Assembly (NCBI GenBank): GCA_938017575.1
Contig: CALIJC010000009.1
Location: 1-62,989 of the forward strand
Source of the DNA: an uncultured Patescibacteria group bacterium
Lineage (GTDB): Bacteria > Patescibacteriota > JACMRA01
Direction of reading: 5' to 3'
Length of the DNA: 62,989 nt
The notes beneath the pieces were generated by a model. The model did no database searches, was not told the DNA's origin, and saw only the letters and a list, made by a program, of their open reading frames with translations. The translations under genes and the position numbers were made by a program. Positions 2,601-62,094 of the stretch are shown here, in pieces. The first letter of the stretch is position 1. Every line of letters begins with the position of its first letter.

Positions 2601-3512
2601 ATGCCTCAAACAACATTAATTACTTTGTTAGGTCAAACTAGCAGCGGCAAATCTGAAATGGCAGTTAGCCTAGCCAAAAAACTTGGCGAAGCTTGGGTGG
2701 TTAATTGTGATTCCCGTCAAATCTACAGGGGGCTAAATATTGGTACCGGTAAGGTAGAAGGTAAGTGGGTCTATGGTAAATATATTTATAAAGGTATCCA
2801 GCACCATTTGATTGATTTTGTTGACCCAAAAAAACGCTATTCATTAAAAAACTTTTTATTAGATTTTAACAAGGTTTGTTCTACCCCTAATATTCCAAAA
2901 TATATAATTTTAACAGGAGGTACTGGCATGTACGCAGATAGTATTATTAATAAATATGAATTAGCCAATCTAAGCGAGTCGCAGGAAAAACAGTTTCAAA
3001 AAACCAAAAAAGAATTGGAACAATTAGATCTAGAAACTCTCCAAAATAAATATAATTCATTAAAAAATATAAGGCCCAATTCTGGCAGTCTTAATAACTC
3101 AGATTTTCATAATTTGCGTAGACTGGTAAATTGGTTAATGAGACAGCAAGATGATTTCTGCAATGCGGATATAATCTCAATACCAGAGTTTAGGAAAACA
3201 TATAATTTTGCTATTAAAATTGACCAAGATATATTAAAGAAAAAAATCACCAGCAGGCTAGAAGAAAGGTTTTCCCAAGGGCTGATGGATGAAGTAAATC
3301 AATTAGATTTAAGTAGTGATAGGCTAAATGAATTAGGGCTGGAGTATAAAATAGTTAGCCAGTATCTGTCTGGTGACATAGATAAAGATGGCATTATTCC
3401 AAAATTAAAAACAGCTAATATTTCTTTGGCAAAAAAACAAAAAACCTGGCTCAAAAAAAGAGATTTAATTTGGGTTAAATCAGAAGATGAAATTATGGAT
3501 TATATTAAATAA
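2601..3512 (+). CDS. miaA: tRNA dimethylallyltransferase
   Basis: P-loop GQTSSGKS, DSRQIYRGLNIGTGK motif, 303 aa, SD aaggggg upstream. Confidence 0.9.
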   Translation: MPQTTLITLLGQTSSGKSEMAVSLAKKLGEAWVVNCDSRQIYRGLNIGTGKVEGKWVYGKYIYKGIQHHLIDFVDPKKRYSLKNFLLDFNKVCSTPNIPKYIILTGGTGMYADSIINKYELANLSESQEKQFQKTKKELEQLDLETLQNKYNSLKNIRPNSGSLNNSDFHNLRRLVNWLMRQQDDFCNADIISIPEFRKTYNFAIKIDQDILKKKITSRLEERFSQGLMDEVNQLDLSSDRLNELGLEYKIVSQYLSGDIDKDGIIPKLKTANISLAKKQKTWLKKRDLIWVKSEDEIMDYIK

Positions 3513-3518
3513 GTGCTT

Positions 3519-3660
3519 TGAGAAGATATTAAATAGGCTAACTTACAAATTAAATACTATTTATTAGAACACTTCTACTATAGAAATAGGGATAGGTGAC
3601 AGCAACAATAATATGCCCTCTCCCAAAAATAGTCATGGGCAGAGGGCAGTCTGAGAACAG
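3519..3660. repeat. Fragment of the dispersed intergenic repeat family, ending in two abutting inverted type-1 termini
   Basis: The module agatattaaatagg...aaatact resembles 44885-44930 and 48735-48800. The segments gccctctccc (3615-3624) and gggcagagggc (3637-3647) form a palindrome made of the GCCCTCTGCCC terminus seen at 45697, 61260 and (reverse complement) 48891. Confidence 0.6.
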
Positions 3661-7138: not shown

Positions 7139-7481
7139 CACCCACCGCTTTTGAATATTTTAGTGAATAATTGAAATCGACCCTGATTTCAATTATTTGC
7201 GTTAAGAAATTTTCATCTAAGTATGGTTTTGTGTAACTTTTTTTAAATTGATGCTACTGTCATCAATTCCTATTTCAATTATAGGAAGTGTTTTTAAAAA
7301 TACACTAAACTATTTAAAATCATAATTAAATCCCATTTCCTAATATACTTTTGGTAAATTGAGGCTACTGCCCTCAATTCCTGTATATGCAAAACTGCTC
7401 TTAAATGAAGTTTTATTAACGCAATTTTCCTAATTCAGGGTCGAATTAGAAAAATCACTAAAACCTTCATGGGTAGAGAGC
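7139..7481. mobile_element. MITE-like element, full copy (about 340 bp) with imperfect terminal inverted repeats of about 85 bp
   Basis: Left arm 7139-7221: cccaccgc...ttttagtgaataattgaaatCGACCCTGatttcaattatttgcgttaagaaattttcat. Right arm 7397-7481 is its inverted counterpart and ends in the reverse complement of gctctctacccatgaagg. Internal twin hairpins are aattgatgctactgtcatcaatt and aattgaggctactgccctcaatt. No ORF. Confidence 0.65.
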
Positions 7482-7515
7482 AATAGAACGAAATCATAAC
7501 CAATATTAATTATAC

Positions 7516-19626: not shown

Positions 19627-19769
19627 AGAGATGTTGGAGAAAACCTACGTATTGAAAGTATAGATACGTAGAATTGTAATCAGGCAGTTAATCCAAGCGA
19701 AAATGAAGCGAAAGAATATACCGACCTTCTAAAGAATAATATTCCATATTTTTTAGGTTTTGTCAAGTA

Positions 19770-44559: not shown

Positions 44560-44593
44560 TTAGCTAATAGTTCCAAATAAGCAAAAAAAAGTC

Positions 44594-44621
44594 AAAAAAA
44601 GCTGACTCAGCAAGGGCTGAG
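44594..44621 (-). terminator. Minus-strand terminator
   Basis: ctcagc aagg gctgag. On the minus strand it is followed by tcagcttttttt. Confidence 0.6.
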
Positions 44622-44645
44622 CCAATAATATTTTAGACAATTTAT

Positions 44646-44852
44646 TCACATGGTGGTAATCACCACAGAAAAATGCTCTTTAAATATACTCACAGTTAAA
44701 CTGAATATAATTAAACATGGAAATCTATATTTCAAATTAATAGGCATGGTTAATACTGCGAACATGGCAATTATTACTAATAACTCCAGTGTAACTAAAA
44801 ACAGTAAATAGTTAACATGGATCATAGCAGCCCATGCCACTCCTTTTTTCAC
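44646..44852 (-). CDS. Small membrane protein (hypothetical)
   Basis: 68 aa with 2 hydrophobic helices. Weak call. Confidence 0.3.
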   Translation of the reverse strand: MKKGVAWAAMIHVNYLLFLVTLELLVIIAMFAVLTMPINLKYRFPCLIIFSLTVSIFKEHFSVVITTM

Positions 44853-45000
44853 AAAAAGTAACTTTCAGAAATGTTTTGAAAAAGATATTAAATAGGTAAT
44901 CTATAGATTAAATACTACTTATTTAATACTTTTGATAGCAAAAAGTTACAAAGAGAAACATTAATGAAAAATAGTTCAAAACAATTATGGCTATAAAAAT
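44850..45000. repeat. Fragment of the intergenic repeat family (internal module plus terminator-associated tail)
   Basis: 44855-44960 resembles 48700-48835 (gtaactttcagaa...attaaatag...atttaatacttttgNtaNcaaaag). 44935-45010 resembles 45790-45875 (agagaaacatta..caattat.gctataa.aataaaaaaatcc). Confidence 0.6.
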
Positions 45001-45031
45001 AAAAAAATCCGACTCAGCAGATGCCAAGTCG
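45001..45031 (-). terminator. Minus-strand terminator of the 45056..45355 gene
   Basis: cgact (45010-45014) pairs with agtcg (45027-45031). On the minus strand it is followed by gattttttt. Confidence 0.6.
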
Positions 45032-45055
45032 TGAGTATTGTTGTTGTCCGCCACC

Positions 45056-45355
45056 TCACCAGAGAGCTACTCCTTTAGAGAGAGCCTCCGGAAAGTGGGT
45101 TAGAAATGGAAAGAATAAAAGTCCAGTGCAAACGTAGCATGAGAGTCTAACCCATTTCCCAACAGGGAAAACGGAGAATCCCAAAAAAAACAGCATAATC
45201 CCCAATTCCACGGCTGGGAGGGTGTATATGAAATCCTTCGAAATCATATACCCAGGCAGGAGAGTCATTCCTCCAAAGCAAACAAGCATCAAGGAAATCT
45301 GAAGCTTGGTAGGTGGGGTAGCCTTTTGAAGACGCTGGGACAAGTTTGAGCGCAT
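45056..45355 (-). CDS. Small 3-TM membrane protein (hypothetical), visibly GC-richer than its surroundings
   Basis: Strong SD aaggagga and a consensus promoter upstream. 99 aa. Confidence 0.55.
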   Translation of the reverse strand: MRSNLSQRLQKATPPTKLQISLMLVCFGGMTLLPGYMISKDFIYTLPAVELGIMLFFLGFSVFPVGKWVRLSCYVCTGLLFFPFLTHFPEALSKGVALW

Positions 45356-45383
45356 GGGTAGGATTCCTCCTTACAACCCCTTA

Positions 45384-45412
45384 ATATTAGGCTATTTTAA
45401 GGCTTTTGTCAA
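45384..45412 (-). promoter_or_regulatory. Promoter TTGACA-N17-TAATAT
   Basis: The reverse complement reads cTTGACAaaagccttaaaatagcc TAATAT, then the leader with aaggagga. Confidence 0.65.
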
Positions 45413-45553
45413 GGGTTTATAGCATATCCATATTGTACCACTGCTTGAGAAAATTGAAGTGTTAATACCTTTATAAAAACCCAAGTAAAAAATACAAAGA
45501 TAACCAATATATTAAATCTATTTGTAATATACTTCATTAAATTAACTACTATA

Positions 45554-45620
45554 GTCATCCTGAATTTAGTTCAGGATCCAGTATCGTTAAATTAGATTCC
45601 GGATCAAGTCCGGAATGACG
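45554..45620. repeat. Two GTCAT...GGATYC-type palindromic hairpin units
   Basis: gtcatcctgaatttagttcaggatcc (45554-45579) and gattccggatcaagtccggaatgac (45595-45620). Same family as 52576-52834. Confidence 0.6.
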
Positions 45621-45694
45621 CACATACCTATCTTATCTATTGTATAAAAAATCTAATTTCTCTATTAGTGCTTCAAATCAAATTATTTTACCAA

Positions 45695-45870
45695 TATGCC
45701 CTCTGCCCATGAGAATTTTAGTGAATAATTAAATCGACCCTGATTTAAATTATTTGCGTTAAGAAATTTTCATTTAAGAGTGATTTTGCGTAACTTTTTT
45801 CACAAAAAGCTACTAAGAGAAACATTAAAGAAAAACAATTCAAAGCAATTATAGCTATAAGAATAAAAAA
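45695..45870. repeat. Partial MITE-like copy (type-1 arm only) plus terminator-associated tail module
   Basis: The arm atgccctctgcccatgagaattttagtgaataattaaatCGACCCTGatttaaattatttgcgttaagaaattttcatttaagag is nearly identical to the arm at 61260-61345. No opposing arm is found. Confidence 0.6.
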
Positions 45871-45887
45871 ATCCGGTTTTAACCGGA
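45864..45887 (-). terminator. Rho-independent terminator of gyrA
   Basis: The minus strand reads tccgg ttaaaa ccgga followed by ttttttt. Confidence 0.7.
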
Positions 45888-45911
45888 ATAATTAATTATA
45901 ACTCTAGTGTA

Positions 45912-48485
45912 TTAAACCACACTACCACTGACAACACTATCTGATTTATGTAGTCTAATAACCTTGATTCCTTGTGTATTTCTACCTAATTGACTGATGT
46001 CTTCTGGAGAGATTCTAATAGTAACACCTTTTTTGGTAGTAACAATCAAACTTTCTTCTTGGCCATCTAAAATTTGCACCAATACTGGTTTCCCTGTTTT
46101 CTTGGTCATGTTTAGAGTTTTGACTCCACCAGCAGCTCTCTTGGTTTTCCTGTAGCCATCTAAATATGTTTGTTTTCCAAATCCATTCTCAGTCACAACC
46201 AATAGAGAAGGGTAGGCTTTGTCTCCTGATTTCTCATCCTCAACCAAGGCATTATCTTTTGCATCACCCTCAGCCTCGTCGCCGCTAGCAAAGTTGAAAT
46301 TAGCGATCTGTAAACTAATTATATGATTATCTTTCTTGAGTCTCATTCCTTTGACACCTTGGGCAGTTCTACCAAGCGGGTTTAATTGTGTTCTATCAAA
46401 AATCACAGTCTTACCATTGTCAGCCGATAGAACAATCTTATCCTCATCGCTAGTAGATAAACATACAGCCATTACACGGTCATCGTCTTTTAATCCAATT
46501 GCAATAATTCCAGTTTGTCGCACATTTTTGAAATCGCTCAATTTAGTTCTCTTCACTAATCCATTATTGGTTGCAAAGATAATTGAACCTTGTTGATCTT
46601 CTTCGATTTCTTTGGTTACGGTTAATATTGTGCTAATATTTTCACCTTCACGTAAATTAAAGTAATTAATCAAAGCTTGACCTCTACCAACACGTGAACC
46701 GCTAGGCATTTCAAACACACGAGTTCTAAACACTCTACCCAAATTAGTAAAGGCGTAGATGTAATCATGTGAATTAGCAATCATGCTAGCTTTGACCCAG
46801 TCTTCGTCTTTTGGATTGAAACTAGTAACTCCAACACCGCCTCGACCTTGCTGCCGGAAATTGGTAATAGGGAGTACCTTGATGTATTGTGATTTAGTTA
46901 GTTGAATCAAAACTGTTTCATCCACAACAAAATCTTCTTTATTGTAATCGCCGACTTTGTGCTCAATAATTTCGGTTCGACGTGGAGATTTTAATTTGTC
47001 ACCCATATCAGTTATTTCCTTGGTAATCAAAGCTTTTTTCACTTCTGGGTTTTCCAAAATTTCTTTTAATTCACCGATTAGTTTCAATTTTGCTTCTCGC
47101 TCATCTTCTATCTTGGATTTGTCCAAATTAGTTAGAGTCTGTAGTCTCATTTGCAAAATAGCTTCGGCCTGCCTCTCAGATAATTTAAATCTTTCCTGGA
47201 GTTTTTTGCTAGCTTCTTCTTTGTCGTAAGAACCTCTGATTAGTTTAATTACCTCATCAATGAAATCTAGTGCGATTTTCAAACCATCCAAAATATGCAG
47301 TTCATCTTCAGCCTTTTTAAGGTCATATTTTGTTCTTCTGACTACAACTTCATCTCTATGAGCTAGGTATTCTTTGAGGATTTCAACCAAGGTTAGTAAT
47401 TTTGGCTGGCGACCTCGGTTGACCAAAGCTAACATGTTGAAATGCAAATTGGTCTGTAAATCTGATAGTTTGTACAGCTGATTCAAAATAACCTCAGGGC
47501 TAGCGTCTCGTTTACATTCGATAACAACTCTGATTCCATCTTTGTTAGATTCATCTCGGATATTTCTAATCCCAGTAATTCTCTTGTCATTAACTAATCC
47601 GGCAATTTTAACCAACAAATCAGCTTTGTTAACCTGGTATGGAATTTCGTGAACAATAATTCGGTTTTCAGTTAGTTCAACTTTGGAACGCAAAGCGCAT
47701 TTTCCTCGACCAGTTTTGTAGGCGTTTAAAATATCAGATTTTCCATAAATAATACCTCCTGTAGGCACATCTGGTCCTTTGATAAATTCCATCAAATCTT
47801 CGGCAGTAGCTTCTGGGTTGTTGAGCAAGTGAATTATCGCACCAATAACCTCATTTAGATTGTGTGGTGGAACTTCAGTGGCCATTCCAACAGCGATTCC
47901 AGTTTGACCGTTGACGATTAGGTTAGGGAATAAAGCTGGTAAAACCTGAGGCTCTCTTTGGCTGGCGTCATAGTTATCAACGAGGTCTACTGTGTCTTTC
48001 TCAATATCCTGGACAATAAATGTAGACGGTTTACCCATTCTACACTCGGTGTACCTCATACTCGCTGGGTTATCTCCATCGATTGAACCAAAATTTCCTT
48101 GACCATCAACTAATGTGTATCTGACTGAAAAATCCTGAGCTAAACGAGCTAGCGCGTTGTAAACAGAAGCGTCTCCGTGAGGGTGATATTTACCCAAAAC
48201 ATCTCCAACTACACGGGCACATTTCATGTATTTACTACCTGGAGTTAGGTTTAGTTTGTGCATTGCGTAGATAATTCTACGGTGAACTGGTTTTAGTCCA
48301 TCACGCACATCTGGAAGAGCACGGGAAACAATAACGCTCATAGCATACGATAGGTATGATGTCTTCATTGTTTCTTCAAGCATCTTTGGCTCGACCCGGT
48401 CTTCTAAAGATTGTCCGATAATATCTTCAACTGAATTATCTCCTTCATTTATTTGATTGTTCTCAGTAGTTACCTCGTTTGACAT
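45912..48485 (-). CDS. gyrA: DNA gyrase subunit A
   Basis: AMSVIVSRALPDVRDGLKPVHRR, YHPHGD, active-site region, C-terminal beta-pinwheel repeats. 857 aa. Confidence 0.98.
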   Translation of the reverse strand: MSNEVTTENNQINEGDNSVEDIIGQSLEDRVEPKMLEETMKTSYLSYAMSVIVSRALPDVRDGLKPVHRRIIYAMHKLNLTPGSKYMKCARVVGDVLGKYHPHGDASVYNALARLAQDFSVRYTLVDGQGNFGSIDGDNPASMRYTECRMGKPSTFIVQDIEKDTVDLVDNYDASQREPQVLPALFPNLIVNGQTGIAVGMATEVPPHNLNEVIGAIIHLLNNPEATAEDLMEFIKGPDVPTGGIIYGKSDILNAYKTGRGKCALRSKVELTENRIIVHEIPYQVNKADLLVKIAGLVNDKRITGIRNIRDESNKDGIRVVIECKRDASPEVILNQLYKLSDLQTNLHFNMLALVNRGRQPKLLTLVEILKEYLAHRDEVVVRRTKYDLKKAEDELHILDGLKIALDFIDEVIKLIRGSYDKEEASKKLQERFKLSERQAEAILQMRLQTLTNLDKSKIEDEREAKLKLIGELKEILENPEVKKALITKEITDMGDKLKSPRRTEIIEHKVGDYNKEDFVVDETVLIQLTKSQYIKVLPITNFRQQGRGGVGVTSFNPKDEDWVKASMIANSHDYIYAFTNLGRVFRTRVFEMPSGSRVGRGQALINYFNLREGENISTILTVTKEIEEDQQGSIIFATNNGLVKRTKLSDFKNVRQTGIIAIGLKDDDRVMAVCLSTSDEDKIVLSADNGKTVIFDRTQLNPLGRTAQGVKGMRLKKDNHIISLQIANFNFASGDEAEGDAKDNALVEDEKSGDKAYPSLLVVTENGFGKQTYLDGYRKTKRAAGGVKTLNMTKKTGKPVLVQILDGQEESLIVTTKKGVTIRISPEDISQLGRNTQGIKVIRLHKSDSVVSGSVV

Positions 48486-48555: not shown

Positions 48556-48903
48556 AAATTGCCCACCGCTTTGTAACTTTTTAGTTATTTTTCAGAGACG
48601 ACCCTGGCTTTGAAAAATAGCGTTAAGAAAAGTTACTCTAGGTCTGGGATCCCAAAAAATCTAAGATTTTTAAGGTGCCCTGGTCTGGTTTTATGTAACT
48701 TTTACCTCCTAAAGTGACTTTCAGAAGTATTTTAAGAAATATATTAAATAGCTTAAGTTATAAACTAAAGATAATTTTATTTAATACTTTTGCTATCAAA
48801 AGTATTACAAAACTACTCTTAATTATAGATTTATTAACGTAATTTCTCTAATCCAGAGTCGAATCAGAGAAACCACTAAAATCTATAAAGGCAGAGGGCA
48901 AGT
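48556..48903. mobile_element. MITE-like element, full copy (about 345 bp)
   Basis: Type-2 arm at 48561: gcccaccgctttgtaactttttagttatttttcagagaCGACCCTGgctttgaaaaatagcgttaag. The inverted type-1 arm ends ..gattcgactctggatt.. / ggcagagggcaag at 48891-48903. The interior contains the perfect hairpin aatacttttg ctat caaaagtatt. Confidence 0.65.
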
Positions 48904-48930
48904 GGAACAAAAAAAGAAAGAATTAAGCTG

Positions 48931-48959
48931 TTGACAAAGTCTGAAAAATAGGGTAAGAT
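48931..48959 (+). promoter_or_regulatory. Promoter TTGACA-N17-TAAGAT
   Basis: TTGACA at 48931-48936 and TAAGAT at 48954-48959. Confidence 0.65.
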
Positions 48960-48965
48960 TTGTAC

Positions 48966-49238
48966 ATGACTTGAGGTGGGTTTACCTTTATCGCAGTCCC
49001 ATTTGTTGGGGATCTTAGGCGAGCCAGTCACAAAACTGGTCACAATACATGTAGCTCATTTTCCGGGAAAGTTATCATGACTAGCTGTCATACGGTAGTG
49101 TGTATTCTACCAGCCCCCGTGCGATAACAAAGGCATAGTCTAATTATGTTGACTAATCAGTCCGGGAACAGTCCAGAAAGTTCCACCCCGTCATACCAAA
49201 TACCCTGTTGCAATCTAGCTCAGGGTATTTATCATTTT
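48966..49238 (+). ncRNA. Candidate structured RNA of about 270 nt, class unknown, upstream of der
   Basis: Visibly GC-richer than its flanks. No credible ORF: the track ORF from 49208 is only the der upstream extension. Closing helix: 48966-48970/49190-49194 plus 48975-48979/49183-49187. Second long-range helix: 48985-48995/49120-49133. Local hairpins: 49024-49039, 49094-49111 and 49136-49155. Terminator hairpin ataccctg/cagggtat (49200-49228) followed by ttatcatttt. Confidence 0.55.
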
Positions 49239-49294
49239 ATATATTTTCTATTCTGTTGACATTTTTGCATATCTATGACAGGTTGATTATTAAT

Positions 49295-51259
49295 ATGACC
49301 CAACCTAAAATCCCAACTGTTGCCTTGTTTGGATTACCTAATTCTGGTAAATCAACACTTCTCAACAGATTAACTGAATCTAAAAAAGCCATTGTTGCTC
49401 GTGAGGCTCACACAACCCGTGATATTAATTATGGTGAGGTTGAGTGGGATGGTTACTATTTCAAATTAGTTGATACAGGTGGTTTGGTGCCGGATCCCAA
49501 AGACAAAATTCAAAAACAAATCCAAATAAAATCTTGGGTGGCTCTGGAGCAAGCTGATATATTAGTATGGGTAATCGATCGCAAACAAAACCCAGAAACT
49601 ATTCATGAATCCATAATCCAAAGAGTTTGGAAAACAGGTAAACCAGTCACAATTTGTATTAACAAAGTAGACGATCCCAATATGGACGCCAGTGTCGGAG
49701 ACTACGCCCACCTCGGAGGTTTTGATTTTGTGAATATTAGTGCTACTACCAGCTATGGTACGGACAAACTACTCGATGGAATTATCAAAAAAATGGGTGA
49801 ATTAGGTTTTGAACCAGTTTCTCACCAAGAACTACCAAGCGATCAAATACTAGATAGTAAATATAAAAAAAAGAAATCCAAAAAGCTAACTCGAGACAAA
49901 GAAGGCAATTTTGTAGTCTTGCGTGAAAATACCGAAGATGGGCCAGGTCTGTTTTATTCCAGCCAAGAATCTCAAATCGTTAACCCAATTGATAACATTA
50001 TTACCGATATTGGTGGGGTAGTGACTGCTGATAATATCATCAACGAAGAGTACGTCGAGCAATTAAAATCCCTCAAAGAAAGCGGAGCTAGTTTATATTA
50101 TTTAACAACCTTCACCCAGGTACAATTAGACCCAATCATCGAAAAACTTCCTGATTTGTTTGATGGAGGTTTATGCAAGGATGATACCAAATGGACAAAA
50201 CCTGATCCGTACGTTTACCGTGAGCTAGCTGAAAAGTACAATTTTGAACCTAGTAAATCTATTTTTATTGACGACAGTCAAACCAATGTTGTGGCAGCTA
50301 GAGAAGTCGGTTTTTTTGGGATCCATTATCTATATGGCAAAACAAATATCTCAGCTATTTACGAAGAAATTATTTCAGGGCAATTAAACAAAATTCCAAA
50401 CCCTCCCAAAGTCCTTTTTATCGGTAAGCCAAATGTAGGAAAATCAAGCCTGTTTAATAGTATGATTGGTGAGGAAATTCAGATTGTAACTGACGTAGCT
50501 GGTACTACAATTAGCGTAAATGATACTCTATTAAACCGTGAGGTGTTTCATAATTTCCGGTCCGAGGATGGGTTTGTTAATATTTCCACTCCAGTTTCCA
50601 AAGACTACGTACTGCTAGATTCTACCGGAGTTCGTAAACCTGGGCAAAGAACCATGGGCGCTGAATCATTTGCCACCTTTAGAACTATTCAAGCAGCTCA
50701 CGAGTCAGACGTAATTTGTCTAATCATGGACGCTACAACACCTTTGACACACCAAGATCAAGTTGTCGCAGGTATTTGCCAAGAAGCAGGTAAGGGTATT
50801 GTTTTGGTAATAAATAAAATGGATATTGTTGATGCCGAGCAAAAACAGGCCTTTTTGAAAAGTTTCCACCATAAATTCGCCTTCTTGAAAATCGATAACA
50901 CAGTATTTGTTTCAGCCAAAGAAAATATTGGCATGAGAGAATTATGGCAATCAATTGATTTGGCACTGGAAGACAGGAAAAAAACCATCTCCAGAGAGCA
51001 GGTTCGAAAACTTTTCAATTACCTGATGAAAAAAAAGAGGCCAAACAAATTACGAAACAAAAAACGACCTGTCATCTACGATTTATTGTACAAACAGTCC
51101 AGCCCGCCAACTTTTGAATTATTAGTCAAAGACAAAGAAGCAATTCACTGGTCATGGGTCAGGTTTCTAGAAAACCAAGTCCGCCGACAATTCCGTTTCA
51201 CAGCCTCTGGAGTCAAAATCAAACTAGTAGAGGTAGACAGAAAAAACGTAGCTAAATAA
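49295..51259 (+). CDS. der: Ribosome-associated GTPase Der/EngA with a roughly 200-aa inter-G-domain insertion carrying a HAD-like domain
   Basis: ATG at 49295 (MTQPKIPTVALFGLPNSGKSTL). GD1 has INKVD. GD2 has GKPNVGKSSL and INKMD. C-terminal KH-like domain. Insert at about 49805-50407 with HAD-IA-like motifs IITDIGGV, LYYLTT, TKPDPYVY and IFIDDS. Confidence 0.9.
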   Translation: MTQPKIPTVALFGLPNSGKSTLLNRLTESKKAIVAREAHTTRDINYGEVEWDGYYFKLVDTGGLVPDPKDKIQKQIQIKSWVALEQADILVWVIDRKQNPETIHESIIQRVWKTGKPVTICINKVDDPNMDASVGDYAHLGGFDFVNISATTSYGTDKLLDGIIKKMGELGFEPVSHQELPSDQILDSKYKKKKSKKLTRDKEGNFVVLRENTEDGPGLFYSSQESQIVNPIDNIITDIGGVVTADNIINEEYVEQLKSLKESGASLYYLTTFTQVQLDPIIEKLPDLFDGGLCKDDTKWTKPDPYVYRELAEKYNFEPSKSIFIDDSQTNVVAAREVGFFGIHYLYGKTNISAIYEEIISGQLNKIPNPPKVLFIGKPNVGKSSLFNSMIGEEIQIVTDVAGTTISVNDTLLNREVFHNFRSEDGFVNISTPVSKDYVLLDSTGVRKPGQRTMGAESFATFRTIQAAHESDVICLIMDATTPLTHQDQVVAGICQEAGKGIVLVINKMDIVDAEQKQAFLKSFHHKFAFLKIDNTVFVSAKENIGMRELWQSIDLALEDRKKTISREQVRKLFNYLMKKKRPNKLRNKKRPVIYDLLYKQSSPPTFELLVKDKEAIHWSWVRFLENQVRRQFRFTASGVKIKLVEVDRKNVAK

Positions 51260-51521: not shown

Positions 51522-52307
51522 TTAGTCTAGGACAACCAGCTTGGGGTTTACTCCTCCCAGATGATTTCTCATCAAGAAAGTGTATAATGCCCAAACATCC
51601 CACCAGCCCATTCGGATACATCCGTGAGACTTATAGACTTGAGCAACTGTCTCGGGAGGTCGAGAACAACCAGGCGATTGACCCTGGAGAGGATTGTCCC
51701 CAAAGTAGTCAACTGGATTTGAATTTTGCAAATACTCCGCTTGCCGAGACTTAGAACACAAGCTCACATTGCTGTGGAATGCATTCACAAAGTCTCCCTT
51801 CCGTAAAGGTCTATTATCCCCCTCCGGCTTGAAAAACATCGTACACCATGTGGCGTGCGTCCTGTTCCCCCATGGAACTAGATCTACAAATTGTTCAGGA
51901 ACCTTTTTCTGAGTTCCTTCCAGGAGAGAGTATTTGTATATCTTACAAAACCCCTCCGAATTGACTTCACAGTCCTTACCACCATCGCCAGTAGCAACTG
52001 TTTTTGGAATTGGCATAGTCCGCCAATCGAACTGATACCGACCAGGCTGGATTCGGTAGGTTCTGTTCTGGGTCGGGCCCATGAATGGGTATCTGGTGAT
52101 ACCTCCAGCACCATTGTTAACCCAAATCTCGAGCCGCTTTTGACTGAGAAAGACTGTAGGTTTGTCAACAGAGTACACAACATCTGGAATTCCAGACTGA
52201 GCTGCAGCAGCTCGGGTGAATGAATCAAAGATCTTGGGAGCAGCTGCAGATGCCGCCCCCAATCCTAGAAATTTAAGAAATTTTCTTCTAGAAAGTTGGG
52301 TGGACAT
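51522..52307 (-). CDS. Tat-signal protein with L,D-transpeptidase (YkuD)-like catalytic motif
   Basis: Twin-arginine signal SRRKFLKFLGLGAASAAA. SHGCIRM near the C-terminus. SD caggagga. Visibly GC-rich. Confidence 0.6.
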   Translation of the reverse strand: MSTQLSRRKFLKFLGLGAASAAAPKIFDSFTRAAAAQSGIPDVVYSVDKPTVFLSQKRLEIWVNNGAGGITRYPFMGPTQNRTYRIQPGRYQFDWRTMPIPKTVATGDGGKDCEVNSEGFCKIYKYSLLEGTQKKVPEQFVDLVPWGNRTHATWCTMFFKPEGDNRPLRKGDFVNAFHSNVSLCSKSRQAEYLQNSNPVDYFGDNPLQGQSPGCSRPPETVAQVYKSHGCIRMGWWDVWALYTFLMRNHLGGVNPKLVVLD

Positions 52308-52351
52308 CGTGCTCCTCCTGTATATGGTAATATATCCTCAACTATGCCTAA

Positions 52352-52380
52352 ATTATAGCATAGTTTTAGCCTATTGTAAA
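52352..52380 (-). promoter_or_regulatory. Promoter TTTACA-N17-TATAAT
   Basis: The reverse complement reads TTTACA ataggctaaaactatgc TATAAT. Confidence 0.65.
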
Positions 52381-52575
52381 GAGTAAAAACCCTCAAACCT
52401 CTTTCTTTTTAGCTGATATTTATGCAGAGTCTATCTAAAAATTTTAATTGCTATTAGTAGCTGCGAAATCCATTTTTTTAAATCAAATTTATCTCATTTT
52501 TTCAAGGGATTAACATTAATTTTATAGCTACAATAAGACTTTTACCTAGAAGTCGGTTATTACATTAATTTGCAT

Positions 52576-52834
52576 GGATTCCCAGTCAAGCTGAGAATGA
52601 CTTTATGCTTTGTCACTGCTTATTATAGCTTGTCATTCCAGACTCGACGGGCTTCCAGCAACAACTACGAAGTAGCTTTGTAGGGGTTTAGTCACGATCC
52701 GGAATCCAATATTTAGTTATCTGGCGGATCCTGAATCAAGCTCAGGATGACTTATTTATTAAGCGTTTTCGTGGATTCCCAGTCAAGCTGAGAATGACAT
52801 TGAATTTTGTCATACCAAACTTGATTTGGTATCC
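52576..52834. repeat. Cluster of at least 6 GTCAT...GGATYC palindromic hairpin units
   Basis: ggattcccagtcaagctgagaatgac occurs twice (52576-52601 and 52773-52798). Also present: ggatcctgaatcaagctcaggatgac, gtcattccagactcgacgggcttcc, gtcacgatccggaatcc and gtcataccaaacttgatttggtatcc. A related single unit lies at about 51424-51447. Confidence 0.65.
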
Positions 52835-52930
52835 AGTTTATAAAAAAAGATATAAAAAAAAACGACACATAGATTAACTATATGCCGTCAGTAGGGAACA
52901 CTATTTCAAATTCAGACACATGGTCTAATT

Positions 52931-54172
52931 CTAAAATAAGTTCGCGGGCTTCTCCTGCTTTCGTACAGGGACACTCTGAACAGTTCTGCTAGGTGGGTTT
53001 ACCACCGAGTTGTCCTGTGCTGGAGGCTGGCTCCGAACAGGTTGACGCTGTACAGGTGTTCGTCGAGTTACAGGCTGCCGTTTAATTTGGCGCTGCGGAG
53101 TTCTACGAACCTGAACCGTGCCGTCGACACAGTCTGAGAAGTTGGTGTCGCCTTGCGCCACCATCTCGTCTACAATAGACTTAGCTAATGCTGCTGCATC
53201 AGCCAAAGACTGGCCATCTCGACCCTTGATTCCGCGAGACCTAATGTCTGCGGTTAATAGCCGCTCCATTCTGGTATACATAATCCGTCTTGCGACTGGA
53301 TTATGGGCATGCCTCGAGAGGCGTGCCAAGCCGGATTCGGCCTTGGAGATGATGATCTCAGCAAGGAGTTCCTGCTGTGAAGGGTGGATCATTCCGGCGG
53401 TTGCCCGTCCGAAATTAAACCCTCCCAGAAAACCTGCATCTACACCAACGTTAGTCGAAGTCTTGCCATCGGCAATGTTGTACTTGACATACTTCGGGCC
53501 AGATCCTGGAATACAGATGATATCACCAATGGTGCTACCATTGCTGTCACCGAAGTTGGTGACATTGGTACGGTTACGAGAAAACGATCTAGCGTCAGTT
53601 TCCCGACTGCTAGAATCTGTGACATTCAAGTTCACATCACCGGCGTTAACGTCACCTTGTTTAACACCGACGTTGTTCTCGGAGTTTGTACCAAGGTTAT
53701 TGTCACCAGTCCGGGTAGGCCCGGTTGTAACATCAGTCTTTGAAGACTGGCCAAGTGAGTTATTAATTGGTCCACTACCAGAGTTGATATCTCCGATAGT
53801 TGTACCAGCATTGATGTTGTTTTCATTATGACCATTAAGGCCATTTTTTATGTCAGTAACACTAGCATCATGTTGGTTCAGGGTCGAACTTGCCCCAGAC
53901 TGAGACTTTGGACTAAATGCACCATCTCCACCAACAGAAATGTCATTCTCGTTATTCGAAGACTGACCCTGTTGGGTCTTGATGAACTGCTGGTACTCCA
54001 GCCACTGCTGTGGCGTGAGAGTGTTTGTGTTGCCATTATGATTCTCAGAGTGCTGTCCTTGCTGGACTCCACCTGCATTAGCAGGTAACAATGAAGTGAA
54101 CAGGACTGTTCCTGAGGCAGCAACAGAGCAAAAGGTTACTCCAAGGATAGAAAAAAGACGTGTAGTTTTCAT
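52931..54172 (-). CDS. Secreted Asn/Gly/Ser/Thr-rich protein with Pro/Arg/Gln-rich C-terminus (hypothetical)
   Basis: ATG at 54172 (MKTTRLFSILGVTFCSVAASG...ANA) preceded by ggaga. Degenerate G-D-x-N type repeats (IGDINSGSG, TGDNNLGTN, KQGDVNAGDVNLNV, FGDSNGSTIGD). Chosen over five overlapping ORFs in other frames. Confidence 0.65.
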   Translation of the reverse strand: MKTTRLFSILGVTFCSVAASGTVLFTSLLPANAGGVQQGQHSENHNGNTNTLTPQQWLEYQQFIKTQQGQSSNNENDISVGGDGAFSPKSQSGASSTLNQHDASVTDIKNGLNGHNENNINAGTTIGDINSGSGPINNSLGQSSKTDVTTGPTRTGDNNLGTNSENNVGVKQGDVNAGDVNLNVTDSSSRETDARSFSRNRTNVTNFGDSNGSTIGDIICIPGSGPKYVKYNIADGKTSTNVGVDAGFLGGFNFGRATAGMIHPSQQELLAEIIISKAESGLARLSRHAHNPVARRIMYTRMERLLTADIRSRGIKGRDGQSLADAAALAKSIVDEMVAQGDTNFSDCVDGTVQVRRTPQRQIKRQPVTRRTPVQRQPVRSQPPAQDNSVVNPPSRTVQSVPVRKQEKPANLF

Positions 54173-54292
54173 GATTTTCTCCAACCCCCGTATAGGGGAA
54201 CGTGTATAGTGTGTAAAACAACTCAAAAAAAACTAAACAATCCCAAAGGTTACCCAGTGGCCTGCCTAGTTATGATTTTTCAAGTTACTCTA

Positions 54293-54593: not shown

Positions 54594-56735
54594 ATGGCAA
54601 AAAAAACAATCGCAGAAACTCTGAAAAATAGTAATAAAAACGAGCCAGGTGTCAAAAAATCATCTGCAAACAGAAAAAGGCTAACAATTGGTTCAGCCAA
54701 AAAAAATCGTGCCAAAATTCCAAAAATCACCAAGATTTTCAAAAAGAAACCTACCGAAGTTAACAAAGAAAAATCCAAAGAAGCGCTGGAAACAGTAAAA
54801 ACTCGCCGAGCCATTAAAAAAGCTAATCCCAACGAATTAGTTACTCGTAAAGGTATTTTGGGGCTGAATTTGACCAGTACTGCTGATGCTAACAGAAAAA
54901 AAGCCTTGGCTGATGATTCAATCGAACAACGTGGTTCACGTCGTTACCGTGTAACCGAAGATGGTGTCAAAGTAAAGATGAAGAAGATTACCAAAAAAAG
55001 GACTTCTAAATCCAAAAAAAGAACCCTCAAAAAGTTCATTGAAAACGACGACGCTTTATACCCAGAGTTCCAAAAACAACCAGAAAAGTTCAAAAAGAAT
55101 GTTATCGAGGTTATTAAACAAGGTGTAACTCGTGGTTTCGTCACCGAAGATGAGCTATTGTATCTAATCCCAAATCCTGAAAATAATATTGAACTGGTCG
55201 AAGACATTATGGATCTTTGTGAGGACAGCGGTTCTCCAGTCAAATTCGATAGTACTTTGGATACTCTGTGGGATGCTCTGCAAAATGAAGAAGAAGTCAA
55301 AAAACGTGAAATCGAACTAGCTTCCAAATTAAAAAACTCTCTCGCAGGTGATGTTTCTGGGTCAGATCTCAAAGATGATGCTGTTCAAAACTACATTCGT
55401 GATATTTCTAGGTATCCTTTGCTAGCCAAAGAAGAAGAGGTTGAACTAGCCAAAAGGATTGAACAAGGGGATCAAGCAGCTAAATTAACACTTTGTAATT
55501 CCAACCTTCGTTTGATTGTTCACTCCGCTAAAAAATACATGGGTCGAAACCTAGCGTTTTTAGATTTGATTCAAGAAGGTAATATTGGTTTACTCCGTGC
55601 AGTTGAAAAATTCGATTGGAGACGTGGTTATAAATTCTCAACCTACGCCAGCTATTGGATTGACCAAAGTATCCGCCGCGCCTTGGCTGATCAATCTCGT
55701 CCAATTAGACTACCTGTTCACGTTGAAGAAAAACTAAACAGGTTCAAAAAAGAAAAAAGAGCTTTGGTTGATTCACTAGGTAGAGAACCAAGCGACGAAG
55801 AAATAGCAGAGAAATTGGAGGTAGATATTGACACAGTCTATTATTTCAAGAGGATCTCTCAGGATACAGTTTCTATCGATACAATGGTCGGGCACAGCGA
55901 AGATAGTGATACCCAAGTTGTTGAAACTATCGAAGACAACCGAACAGCCCCTCCTATTGATGTAGCAAGTAATAAAATCTTGCGTGATTACATGATGGAG
56001 ATCGTTGATGATTGTCTAGAGCCACGTGAAAAAAAGGTTATCTTGCTTCGTTTTGGTTTGGACGGTACTGGAGTAGCTCATACATTAGAGGAAATTGGAG
56101 AAGTTTTCCAAGTAACACGTGAGCGTGTTAGACAGATTGAAGAGGTTGCCTTGAATAAAATCAGACAACACCCAAGTAGCTATAAATTGGTAGATTTCTT
56201 GGAAGGTATTCATCCACAAACATTTGCACCAAGTAGCTACAAGAAAGAAAACGAGGTTGAGCTGGATATTCAATTCAACAAAAAAATTGACCTGGAAAAA
56301 GTCGTGGCTACTATTGTTGAGCAAATCAATACAAATAAATGTAGTTTGTATTTCCTTCGTGGAGATATGGGGGTAGGTAAAACTACAATCGTTCAAAATG
56401 TCTGCAAAAAAATCAGCACTATCGAAGAAGCAACTAGCCCAACTTATGCGTTAATGCAAAAATATAAACTTAGCAGCGGAAGCAGTGCCAGAAATACTGG
56501 TAATTTCGAAGAAGTTGTTCACATGGATTTACATAGATTGAAACAATTATCTCAAGAAGATCTAGGCTGGATAGAAGAAGAATTAATCAATACAAACAAT
56601 GTGATTTTTGTGGAATGGCCAGAAAAACTACTCAAAAAACAACATTTAATTCAGTTCCTTGGTAGAAAATTCCTAATAATTGAATGTAAGATTGGTAAAA
56701 AAGGAGATCATTATTTCAGAATCAAAGAGAATTAA
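54594..56735 (+). CDS. rpoD: RNA polymerase sigma-70 (RpoD-type) fused in frame to a C-terminal TsaE (YjeE) P-loop ATPase domain
   Basis: Lys-rich N-terminus. Region 2: DLIQEGNIGLLRAVEKFDWRRGYKFSTYASYWIDQSIRRA. Region 4.2: TLEEIGEVFQVTRERVRQIE. From about 56259: LYFLRGDMGVGKTT...ATSPTYALMQKY...HMDLHRL...FVEWPE, which is the TsaE signature. A single uninterrupted 713-codon ORF. Confidence 0.9.
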   Translation: MAKKTIAETLKNSNKNEPGVKKSSANRKRLTIGSAKKNRAKIPKITKIFKKKPTEVNKEKSKEALETVKTRRAIKKANPNELVTRKGILGLNLTSTADANRKKALADDSIEQRGSRRYRVTEDGVKVKMKKITKKRTSKSKKRTLKKFIENDDALYPEFQKQPEKFKKNVIEVIKQGVTRGFVTEDELLYLIPNPENNIELVEDIMDLCEDSGSPVKFDSTLDTLWDALQNEEEVKKREIELASKLKNSLAGDVSGSDLKDDAVQNYIRDISRYPLLAKEEEVELAKRIEQGDQAAKLTLCNSNLRLIVHSAKKYMGRNLAFLDLIQEGNIGLLRAVEKFDWRRGYKFSTYASYWIDQSIRRALADQSRPIRLPVHVEEKLNRFKKEKRALVDSLGREPSDEEIAEKLEVDIDTVYYFKRISQDTVSIDTMVGHSEDSDTQVVETIEDNRTAPPIDVASNKILRDYMMEIVDDCLEPREKKVILLRFGLDGTGVAHTLEEIGEVFQVTRERVRQIEEVALNKIRQHPSSYKLVDFLEGIHPQTFAPSSYKKENEVELDIQFNKKIDLEKVVATIVEQINTNKCSLYFLRGDMGVGKTTIVQNVCKKISTIEEATSPTYALMQKYKLSSGSSARNTGNFEEVVHMDLHRLKQLSQEDLGWIEEELINTNNVIFVEWPEKLLKKQHLIQFLGRKFLIIECKIGKKGDHYFRIKEN

Positions 56736-61215: not shown

Positions 61216-61254
61216 CAACCATTCTCCTCAAATTTGTAGAATTATCTTCCGTTC

Positions 61255-61562
61255 CAATTGCCCTCTGCCCATGAGAATCTTAGTGATTATTAGAAATCGA
61301 CCCTGATTTCTAATAATTGCGTTAATAGATTTTCATTTAAGAGCAGTTTTACCTATACTTTTGCTGCCAAAAGTATAATGAGGTGGAGCATTAAAATTAT
61401 ATTAAATTGTGAAGGGTATTTTCAGAAAACATCTTCCTTTCATTACTTTTTGTAAAAAAAGTAACACAAAATCACACCTAGAGTAACTTTTCTTAACGCT
61501 ATTTTTCAAAGCCAGAGTCGTCTCTGCAAAATAACTAAAAAGTTACAAAGTGGTGGGCAACT
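61255..61562. mobile_element. MITE-like element, full copy (about 305 bp), opposite orientation to the 7139 and 48556 copies
   Basis: The type-1 arm starts at 61260: gccctctgcccatgagaatcttagtgattattagaaatCGACCCTGatttctaataattgcgttaatag. The inverted type-2 arm ends caaagtggtgggcaa at 61560. Confidence 0.65.
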
Positions 61563-61720
61563 AGCAAAAACTTATCTATCATCAATTCCCAAATTAGAAA
61601 CTTTACGTCAAGAAATTTTCATTTAGTAAATTGATACTCAGGTTATCAATTTACGGTTTTGTAATACTTTTGCTATCAAAAGTATTAAAAGAAATAGTGT
61701 TTATTTAATAGATTCAAACC
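61563..61720. repeat. Additional repeat-family modules adjoining the MITE-like copy
   Basis: Contains aagaaattttcatttag, a hairpin aattgatactcaggttatcaatt, and the perfect palindrome aatacttttgctatcaaaagtatt, identical to the one inside the 48556-48903 copy. Confidence 0.5.
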
Positions 61721-61761: not shown

Positions 61762-62094
61762 TCATTCATAATTTTGTTGAGATTCAATCTCAGATTTAGC
61801 TTGATCTGCAGCTCCTTGTTGTTTTTCAAAACTAATCCCATTACCTATTAACAGTAAACTCAATTTTGCATCTAATTGAGCTAGCATGATTTGGTTCTGA
61901 AAAGTTATATTTCTTATTTCAGATCTTTGTAAACCTGCATCTTTTTGAGATTCTCTAAAAATTACCAGCATTATACCTAAAACCGCCACAAAAATGGTCA
62001 ACATACCAATCATTGCTGTTATGAATTCACCAACAGATATATAATTAGTATTGTTATTACCATACAAACTTGCAAAAATGTCAAGATTTGTCAT
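61762..62094 (-). CDS. Single-TM hypothetical protein
   Basis: 110 aa, one central hydrophobic helix, ATG start. Confidence 0.45.
   Translation of the reverse strand: MTNLDIFASLYGNNNTNYISVGEFITAMIGMLTIFVAVLGIMLVIFRESQKDAGLQRSEIRNITFQNQIMLAQLDAKLSLLLIGNGISFEKQQGAADQAKSEIESQQNYE

Follow-up and report, generated by a model that had tools for sequence, protein, structure and literature searches.

Between gyrA and der of an uncultured member of the Patescibacteria lies a gene-free stretch of about 270 nt that carries a promoter of its own and a terminator-like hairpin. The locus raises the question of whether this DNA specifies a small RNA, serves as a leader of der or is what remains of something else. 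We addressed it in a window of 62,989 nt, the whole stretch of DNA analysed (contig CALIJC010000009.1). The stretch, referred to here as the unit, is non-coding DNA with a promoter at one end and a hairpin at the other, and the sequence features that an initial annotation had listed for it are all present in the DNA.

The locus and its host genome

The window has 35% GC, and the host is Patescibacteria-like with a small genome. Open reading frames under translation table 11 cover about 82% of the window, and 18% is intergenic. The gene gyrA lies on the − strand (45912-48485) and der on the + strand, with its ATG at 49295, leaving a spacer of 809 nt between them. In the nearest public genome, 'Candidatus Gracilibacteria bacterium RU_4_5', GyrA is 85% and Der 64% identical; GyrA identity does not exceed 79% in any other relative. 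The gyrA-der interval of RU_4_5 holds four protein genes without counterpart in the window, and the locus is rearranged relative to the relatives examined. Over the unit, the window agrees exactly with ENA ERZ6864144 and Logan ERR9287624; as the three are independent assemblies, its sequence can be taken as reliable.

Outside the unit, the spacer is pieced together from decayed repeat-module copies. Its gyrA-proximal half (48559-48646 and 48711-48912) is made of intergenic repeat modules that recur in other spacers, with copies at 61473-61560 (95%), 61251-61376, 61656-61714, 44855-44952, 7390-7493 and 3511-3581, and the core of these modules is the hairpin AATACTTTTG-CTAT-CAAAAGTATT. One of these copies, near 44850, has at its end a Shine-Dalgarno sequence together with the start of a 68-aa ORF, and the breakpoints of other samples' assemblies (48597 and 48785) lie within the gyrA-proximal repeats. 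The motif TGAAAAATAG(C/G)GT, found at 48942-48954 inside the spacer of the candidate promoter described below, recurs about 330 nt away in the gyrA-proximal repeat as a direct and an inverted copy (48586-48596 and 48611-48623); it could be a shared operator, or simply a component of the repeat. A second repeat family consists of short hairpins of the type GTCATTCYSAG-CTTGA-CTGGGAATCC, located at 52575-52603, 52769-52797, 52728-52750 and 45570-45625, within the spacers 52308-52930 and 44560-45911. The 232-nt scan window from 52501 folds unusually well on both strands (z about −4). The one from 19601 also folds well (z = −3.8); at 19761-19766 of the − strand, a consensus TTGACA-17-TATGGA box is directed into a spacer of 170 nt that follows the 18092-19600 gene; that strand has no gene downstream of the box, and box and spacer are possibly another small transcription unit.

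Some protein genes of the window deserve a separate mention. Der (EngA; 49295-51259, 654 aa) holds a HAD-family hydrolase domain between its two GTPase domains, an architecture seen in many Patescibacteria homologues. The ORF 54594-56735 (713 aa) encodes a sigma-70 factor (regions 1.2 to 4) fused to a C-terminal TsaE domain. Pfam has no match for two − strand ORFs at 51522-54226 (261 and 431 aa), whose GC content is 47-49% against 35% for the genome; they may have been acquired from elsewhere.

Signals that delimit the unit

The features of the unit and its right-hand boundary are the following:

48931-48959, + strand: sigma-70-type promoter; −35 box TTGACA at 48931-48936, 17-nt spacer, −10 box TAAGAT at 48954-48959
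48966-48974, + strand: AUG ACU UGA at the predicted 5′ end; ATG 35 nt after the start of TTGACA
48966-49197, + strand: body of the putative transcript, non-coding and enriched in GC; 232 nt, 46% GC
48966-48980, + strand: helix P1, 5′ strand; AUGAC..GGUGGG
48985-48995, + strand: helix P2, 5′ strand; CCUUUAUCGCA, complementary to 49120-49133 with an AAC bulge
49120-49133, + strand: helix P2, 3′ strand; UGCGAUaacAAAGG
49182-49194, + strand: helix P1, 3′ strand; UCCACC.c.GUCAU, followed by ACC and then the hairpin
49198-49248, + strand: terminator-like element; 10-bp stem AAAUACCCUG / CAGGGUAUUU, 13-nt loop, U-rich tail AUCAUUUUAUAUAUUUUC
49256-49297, + strand: der promoter and start codon; TTGACA at 49256-49261, −10-like CAGGTT at 49279-49284, start codon at 49295

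The promoter, described in the initial annotation as a near-consensus TTGACA-N17-TAAGAT, matches the consensus at 10 of 12 positions and has its predicted start at about 48966. TTGACA is the working −35 box in this genome, because it is enriched in intergenic DNA (28 of its 53 copies in the window, in 18% of the sequence, or about 5-fold) and TTGAC is placed exactly 35-37 nt upstream of 10 of the 55 start codons. Leaderless-type starts are common in the window (among them those at 48485 for gyrA, 49295 for der, 11598, 28599, 40512 and 44559), and a Shine-Dalgarno sequence is missing from most genes. For gyrA, the box is found 35 nt ahead of the ATG. A TTGACA box belonging to der had also been claimed, and it exists: it sits 39 nt before the der ATG and bounds the unit on the right, and in one relative (L003) the corresponding box is 36 nt ahead of the ATG. 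Tandem TTGACA boxes precede other genes as well (54333/54456 and 57311/57409). The candidate promoter and the der promoter share the extended −35 context CTGTTGACA, which makes of it a 9-nt direct repeat flanking the unit, at 48928 and 49253. A mobile insertion with target-site duplication was considered and rejected, since terminal inverted repeats are absent and CTGTTGACA is simply the −35 context that the two promoters share.

On the opposite side, the hairpin (49198-49230) has a stability of −14.8 kcal/mol on its own, and the 61-nt stretch 49190-49250 reaches −15.6 kcal/mol, with z = −5.2. Its pairs form with a probability of 0.8-1.0 within the full transcript. It is as stable as the canonical terminators of the window, but its U-tract, unlike theirs, is interrupted; the terminator scan left it uncalled because of the 13-nt loop. 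No antiterminator was found, the best competing pairing of either arm being −7.0 or −8.1 kcal/mol versus −14.8 for the hairpin.

Between both signals the DNA changes in composition. GC content is 0.43-0.47 over 48950-49200, against 0.19-0.36 upstream (48700-48999) and 0.29 downstream (49200-49299), in agreement with the claim that the unit is visibly GC-richer than the flanking intergenic DNA. Its 200-nt maximum of 0.47 falls between the 95th (0.44) and the 99th (0.49) percentile of the window, and only one spacer, which harbours a small ORF, is not lower in GC than the unit; other spacers have 27-35% GC. The codon-usage score is at most 0.06 in all six frames, compared with 0.27 ± 0.11 for genes, and only 0.007 in the frame starting at 48966. 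None of the six-frame peptides of the region has a match at E ≤ 10 among 5.8 billion proteins, and its small ORFs have no record as called genes; the view that the stretch contains no credible ORF is thereby sustained. Codon usage is nevertheless unable to exclude atypical small genes, because the nearby ORF 45056-45355 (99 aa, 46% GC), arranged as promoter, Shine-Dalgarno sequence and terminator, also scores as non-coding (−0.025).

One point had been overlooked: the predicted transcript would begin with an AUG at leaderless distance, which opens the reading of the unit as a protein-gene relic. The probability of finding an ATG by chance 35 nt past the TTGACA is about 4% (background ATG frequency, 0.013 per position). 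The frame reads ATG ACT TGA, followed by 50 open codons up to a TAA at 49125 and 43 further codons after it. The meaning of TGA is consequential in this context. Gracilibacteria that use code 25 read TGA as Gly, and the nearest named relatives are Gracilibacteria; such decoding would open a 53-codon leaderless ORF. We rejected it, as terminators directly follow the TGA stops of 61762-62094 and 45056-45355, which makes these stops real, and as full-length ORFs free of TGA are found under table 11. TGA is a genuine though rare stop in the host genome, closing 2 of the 56 window ORFs of at least 100 aa (TAA closes 44 and TAG 10). In-frame TGA is absent from the table-11 ORFs of the window, full-length gyrA and der included, a property that ORFs called under table 11 have by construction. 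In the relatives L005, L007 and L009, TGA accounts for 1 of 25 stops, and two called hypothetical genes of L005 have one in-frame TGA each. The host lineage may be one that avoids TGA.

Folding, known RNA families and relatives

The initial annotation had presented the unit as a structured RNA, a description that the folding results do not support for its interior. The + strand of the body (48966-49197) folds at −61.9 kcal/mol with z = −1.00, and 33 of 200 shuffled sequences were equally stable, the background over the window being z = −0.51 ± 1.49. A value of z = −2.27 was obtained for 48960-49232, a stretch that included the terminator hairpin. The minimum free energy and centroid structures of the + strand are multibranched, with short hairpins of 4-6 bp, in a highly diverse ensemble. 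A better fold is predicted for the − strand, with z = −2.79 for the body alone and −3.92 when the hairpin is included; its minimum free energy structure uses both P1 and P2, with extra G-U pairs. On the + strand only P1 is robust. Its pairs, 48966-48970 with 49190-49194 and 48975-48980 with 49182-49187, have probabilities of 0.65-0.97, which supports the proposal that the first transcribed bases pair with the last bases before the hairpin. The P1 duplex amounts to −13.6 kcal/mol, a value reached by 0.2% of equally spaced pairs of the window and by 2.1% of those with similar GC. As for the second long-range helix proposed, the complementarity of P2 is real, but its formation is not supported: on the + strand it would be a minor conformer (pair probability 0.04-0.28), and it enters the minimum free energy structure solely on the − strand. 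According to these predictions, the interior of the unit is probably loosely structured.

The search for known families started from Rfam 15, with which tRNA-Phe was the only family found in the window. Three settings (gathering thresholds for the entire window, and a limit of E ≤ 10 for stretches of 901 nt and of 286 nt) gave nothing relevant in the spacer, riboswitch and leader families included. The scan that had been suggested thus returned no family, and the earlier failure to match the unit to RNase P, SRP, tmRNA or 6S RNA is upheld. Bacterial RNase P RNA contains the conserved region CR-I (GNAANNUCNGNG) and then CR-V (ACNNRANNNNGNNUA), whose pairing constitutes helix P4. The models RF00010 and RF00011 had no match at gathering thresholds nor at E ≤ 10 on 901 or 286 nt, a negative in which scores near bit 5 fall under the level at which the tool lists matches. 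The RNase P RNAs of CPR bacteria are reported to be diverged and under-detected by Rfam models, with bit scores down to 5 (PMC8172020). For this reason CR-I and CR-V were looked for directly. CR-I had no match with one mismatch or less on either strand of 48900-49260, and CR-V-like sites (one mismatch) occur only at 48969, at the 5′ end, and at 49242, on the − strand and outside the unit, in the wrong order for P4.

Other housekeeping RNAs fared no better. A tmRNA combines a tRNA-Ala-like acceptor/T-arm domain with a tag-peptide reading frame; ARAGORN found none with default settings and none in the spacer at the 80% threshold, no Rfam match was obtained, and the third pair of P1 is G-C rather than the tmRNA-like G-U. 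SRP RNA, either 4.5S or the large bacterial form, is recognized by helix 8, with its GNAR tetraloop and conserved symmetric and asymmetric loops. No SRP model of Rfam matched at E ≤ 10, and UCAGUCCGGGAAC, tried as a helix 8 motif, was discarded, the likeness being one by eye and the bases past the would-be tetraloop being unable to pair. 6S RNA is a mostly double-stranded rod of about 180-200 nt with a central bubble. The unit, with its multibranched fold, z = −1.0 and no Rfam match, does not have this shape, single-sequence folding being a weak test of it. Judged by these searches, the unit appears to belong to no known RNA family. Elements of other kinds were likewise set aside: a replication origin, there being no switch in GC skew; a dif or parS site, the resemblance being weak and by eye; and a TIGR or CRISPR-like array, tandem repeats being absent.

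Relatives of the unit were sought around der in four genomes and around gyrA in six relatives, whose GyrA is 73-85% identical. Upstream of der in L001, L002 and L003 there is no similarity to the unit nor any match to a single-sequence covariance model, and the unit is absent from the gyrA loci of the six relatives. Neither blastn nor tblastx against ten relatives' loci detected a homologue, and none was found by the single-sequence model over 240 kb, comprising the window and about 177 kb of relatives' loci. The window contains no second copy. Phage and plasmid collections had no match to the unit. The pattern TCCGGGAAAGTT..TCCGGGAA matched four viral contigs, of which L013 and L015, one from each pair of equal span, look like chance matches; a 19-mer pattern scan of viral DNA gave nothing, and a single 20-mer scan of metagenomes matched only apparent coding sequence in two unrelated contigs. 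Two causes lie behind the lack of homologues: the unit is truly missing from the syntenic site, and the lineage is sparsely sampled.

A small-RNA reading and its rivals

Taking possession of its own promoter and its own terminator as the mark of an independent small-RNA gene, both are present here as signals in the DNA (10 of 12 positions for the promoter; z = −5.2 for the hairpin). We tentatively propose, with doubt still slightly outweighing confidence, that the unit is a lineage-specific, stand-alone small-RNA transcription unit of the + strand, insulated from der. In the model, RNA polymerase would initiate at about 48966 from TTGACA-N17-TAAGAT, transcribe some 232 nt of GC-enriched non-coding sequence and stop at the 49198-49230 hairpin and its U-rich tail; the transcript would measure about 270-285 nt. 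Its first 15 nt would pair with the last 13 nt before the hairpin, so that P1 would clamp the ends and bury the 5′-terminal AUG, and the RNA would not be treated as a leaderless mRNA. The hairpin would insulate der, whose transcription would start from a separate leaderless-type promoter located 25 nt beyond it. The small-RNA reading is favoured because (i) P1 joins the ends set by the promoter and the hairpin, and (ii) GC content is 46% against 35%, with no coding signal and no protein homologue. It is weakened because the + strand of the body folds no better than shuffled sequences and the − strand folds better, because the ensemble is diffuse, the U-tract is interrupted and neither a homologue nor an Rfam family is found, and because an AUG start at leaderless distance is odd for a non-coding RNA in this genome. 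On these signals, the unit is probably transcribed as an independent RNA of about 270 nt with paired ends; we infer its transcription, the stability of the transcript and an action in trans as a regulatory or protein-binding small RNA.

Comparison with known systems places the unit nearest to orphan sRNA genes of the kind obtained by screening AT-rich genomes for GC-rich intergenic regions. Like them it is intergenic and free of protein signal, and it has a sigma-70-type promoter, a short GC-enriched non-coding body and, at its end, a hairpin followed by U-rich sequence. It differs from them in that homologues, an evident seed or target and a significant fold are all missing, and its length of about 270 nt exceeds that of most base-pairing sRNAs. 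Paired 5′ and 3′ ends, as provided by P1, are found in RNase P RNA, 6S RNA, SRP RNA and tmRNA, and in size too, at about 230 nt, the unit is comparable to the smallest RNase P RNAs; unlike these housekeeping RNAs, it shows neither CR-I nor CR-V, and it lacks a P4 pseudoknot, a tRNA-like domain, a tag ORF, the SRP helix 8 motif and the rod-like shape of 6S RNA. With the leaderless small protein genes of the host (TTGAC at −35 to −37) it has in common the 35-nt geometry and a terminator downstream, but not the TGA at codon 3, the non-coding codon usage or the lack of a protein homologue. In terminator-based 5′ leaders, the order promoter, structured region, hairpin and gene on the same strand is that of the unit and der, whereas riboswitches and attenuators differ from it in that the unit has no antiterminator, no conserved aptamer and no conservation before der, and the der promoter is separate.

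A decayed leaderless gene is a serious rival because of the ATG at leaderless distance and the frame that remains open after the TGA. The unit would be in this case the relic, or a crippled copy, of a protein gene of about 53 codons (48966-49127) with a nonsense TGA at codon 3, to which promoter, 5′-terminal ATG and terminator once belonged; its GC enrichment would be a leftover of coding and P1 a coincidence; we consider this somewhat unlikely. The position of the ATG is that of gyrA (35 nt) and of nine other starts (35-37 nt), codons stay open on either side of the TAA (50 before, 43 after), atypical small genes such as ORF 45056-45355 escape codon usage, the rest of the spacer consists of decayed repeat-module copies, and genes occupy the syntenic interval in the closest relative. 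Against this, TGA genuinely works as a stop in this genome, the frame scores 0.007 for codon usage, its peptide has no homologue among 5.8 billion proteins nor a tblastx match to the relatives' genes, and a P1 coincidence at the 0.2-2% level would be needed. The open frame itself is weak evidence, because 53 random codons contain at most one stop with a probability of about 0.2. A more neutral origin, which we regard as rather unlikely, would make of the unit a non-functional spacer left over from the rearrangement that joined gyrA and der, with a fortuitous promoter box and a hairpin acting as insulator between divergent genes. It agrees with the absence of the element from all relatives examined, with a locus rearranged relative to theirs and made up of repeat copies, with a fold no better than chance and with the 9-nt direct repeat CTGTTGACA on both flanks. 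It requires, however, the coincidence of a consensus −35 box, a 17-nt spacing, a −10 box with the key A2 and T6, an end-joining P1 and a hairpin with z = −5, and a GC content of 46% is unexpected for neutral DNA where other spacers have 27-35%.

A role of the unit as a distal promoter and long 5′ leader of der, attenuator or riboswitch, with conditional read-through adding to der expression, is improbable. The unit is directly upstream of der on the same strand, the hairpin lies 65 nt before the ATG, tandem TTGACA boxes also precede other genes, and internal initiation without a Shine-Dalgarno sequence must be possible because most genes here lack one. Against it, no pairing competes with the hairpin, whose formation probability is about 1, no riboswitch or leader family matches, nothing similar precedes der in the three relatives, and the der promoter is at leaderless distance. 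The unit is thus probably not a der leader, and the earlier suggestion of an independent unit is supported by its promoter, its strong hairpin without antiterminator, the promoter proper to der and the absence of the unit before der in those relatives. A functional RNA on the − strand, for instance an upstream element of gyrA, is very improbable. The better fold of that strand (z = −2.79 for the body, −3.92 with the hairpin, P1 and P2 in the minimum free energy structure) speaks for it, but −2.79 is only about 1.5 SD off the window background, the best promoter candidate (ATGTCA-17-TAAAAT, 9 of 12) would start inside the hairpin, a terminator is absent on that strand, and gyrA is already provided with a TTGACA box 35 nt upstream of its start codon.

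The small-RNA reading can be carried further, to a version on which we would place little weight: the unit could be the first representative of a new structured-RNA family, about 230 nt long, in a sparsely sampled lineage of the Patescibacteria, with a terminal clamp helix that shields the 5′-terminal AUG against leaderless-type ribosome loading and with relatives at other genomic positions. The unit is a modest, single-genome and fairly ordinary candidate and, if real, belongs to the broad class of orphan bacterial small RNAs and not to a new type of system. If it is a decayed small gene, it would be an ordinary by-product of genome rearrangement. To our knowledge, Patescibacteria have minimal genomes and an RNA biology that is almost uncharacterised. 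Should the unit prove to be transcribed and functional, it would rank among the very few candidate regulatory RNAs described in Patescibacteria and would raise the question of how a non-coding RNA starting with AUG escapes the ribosome amid many starts at leaderless distance.
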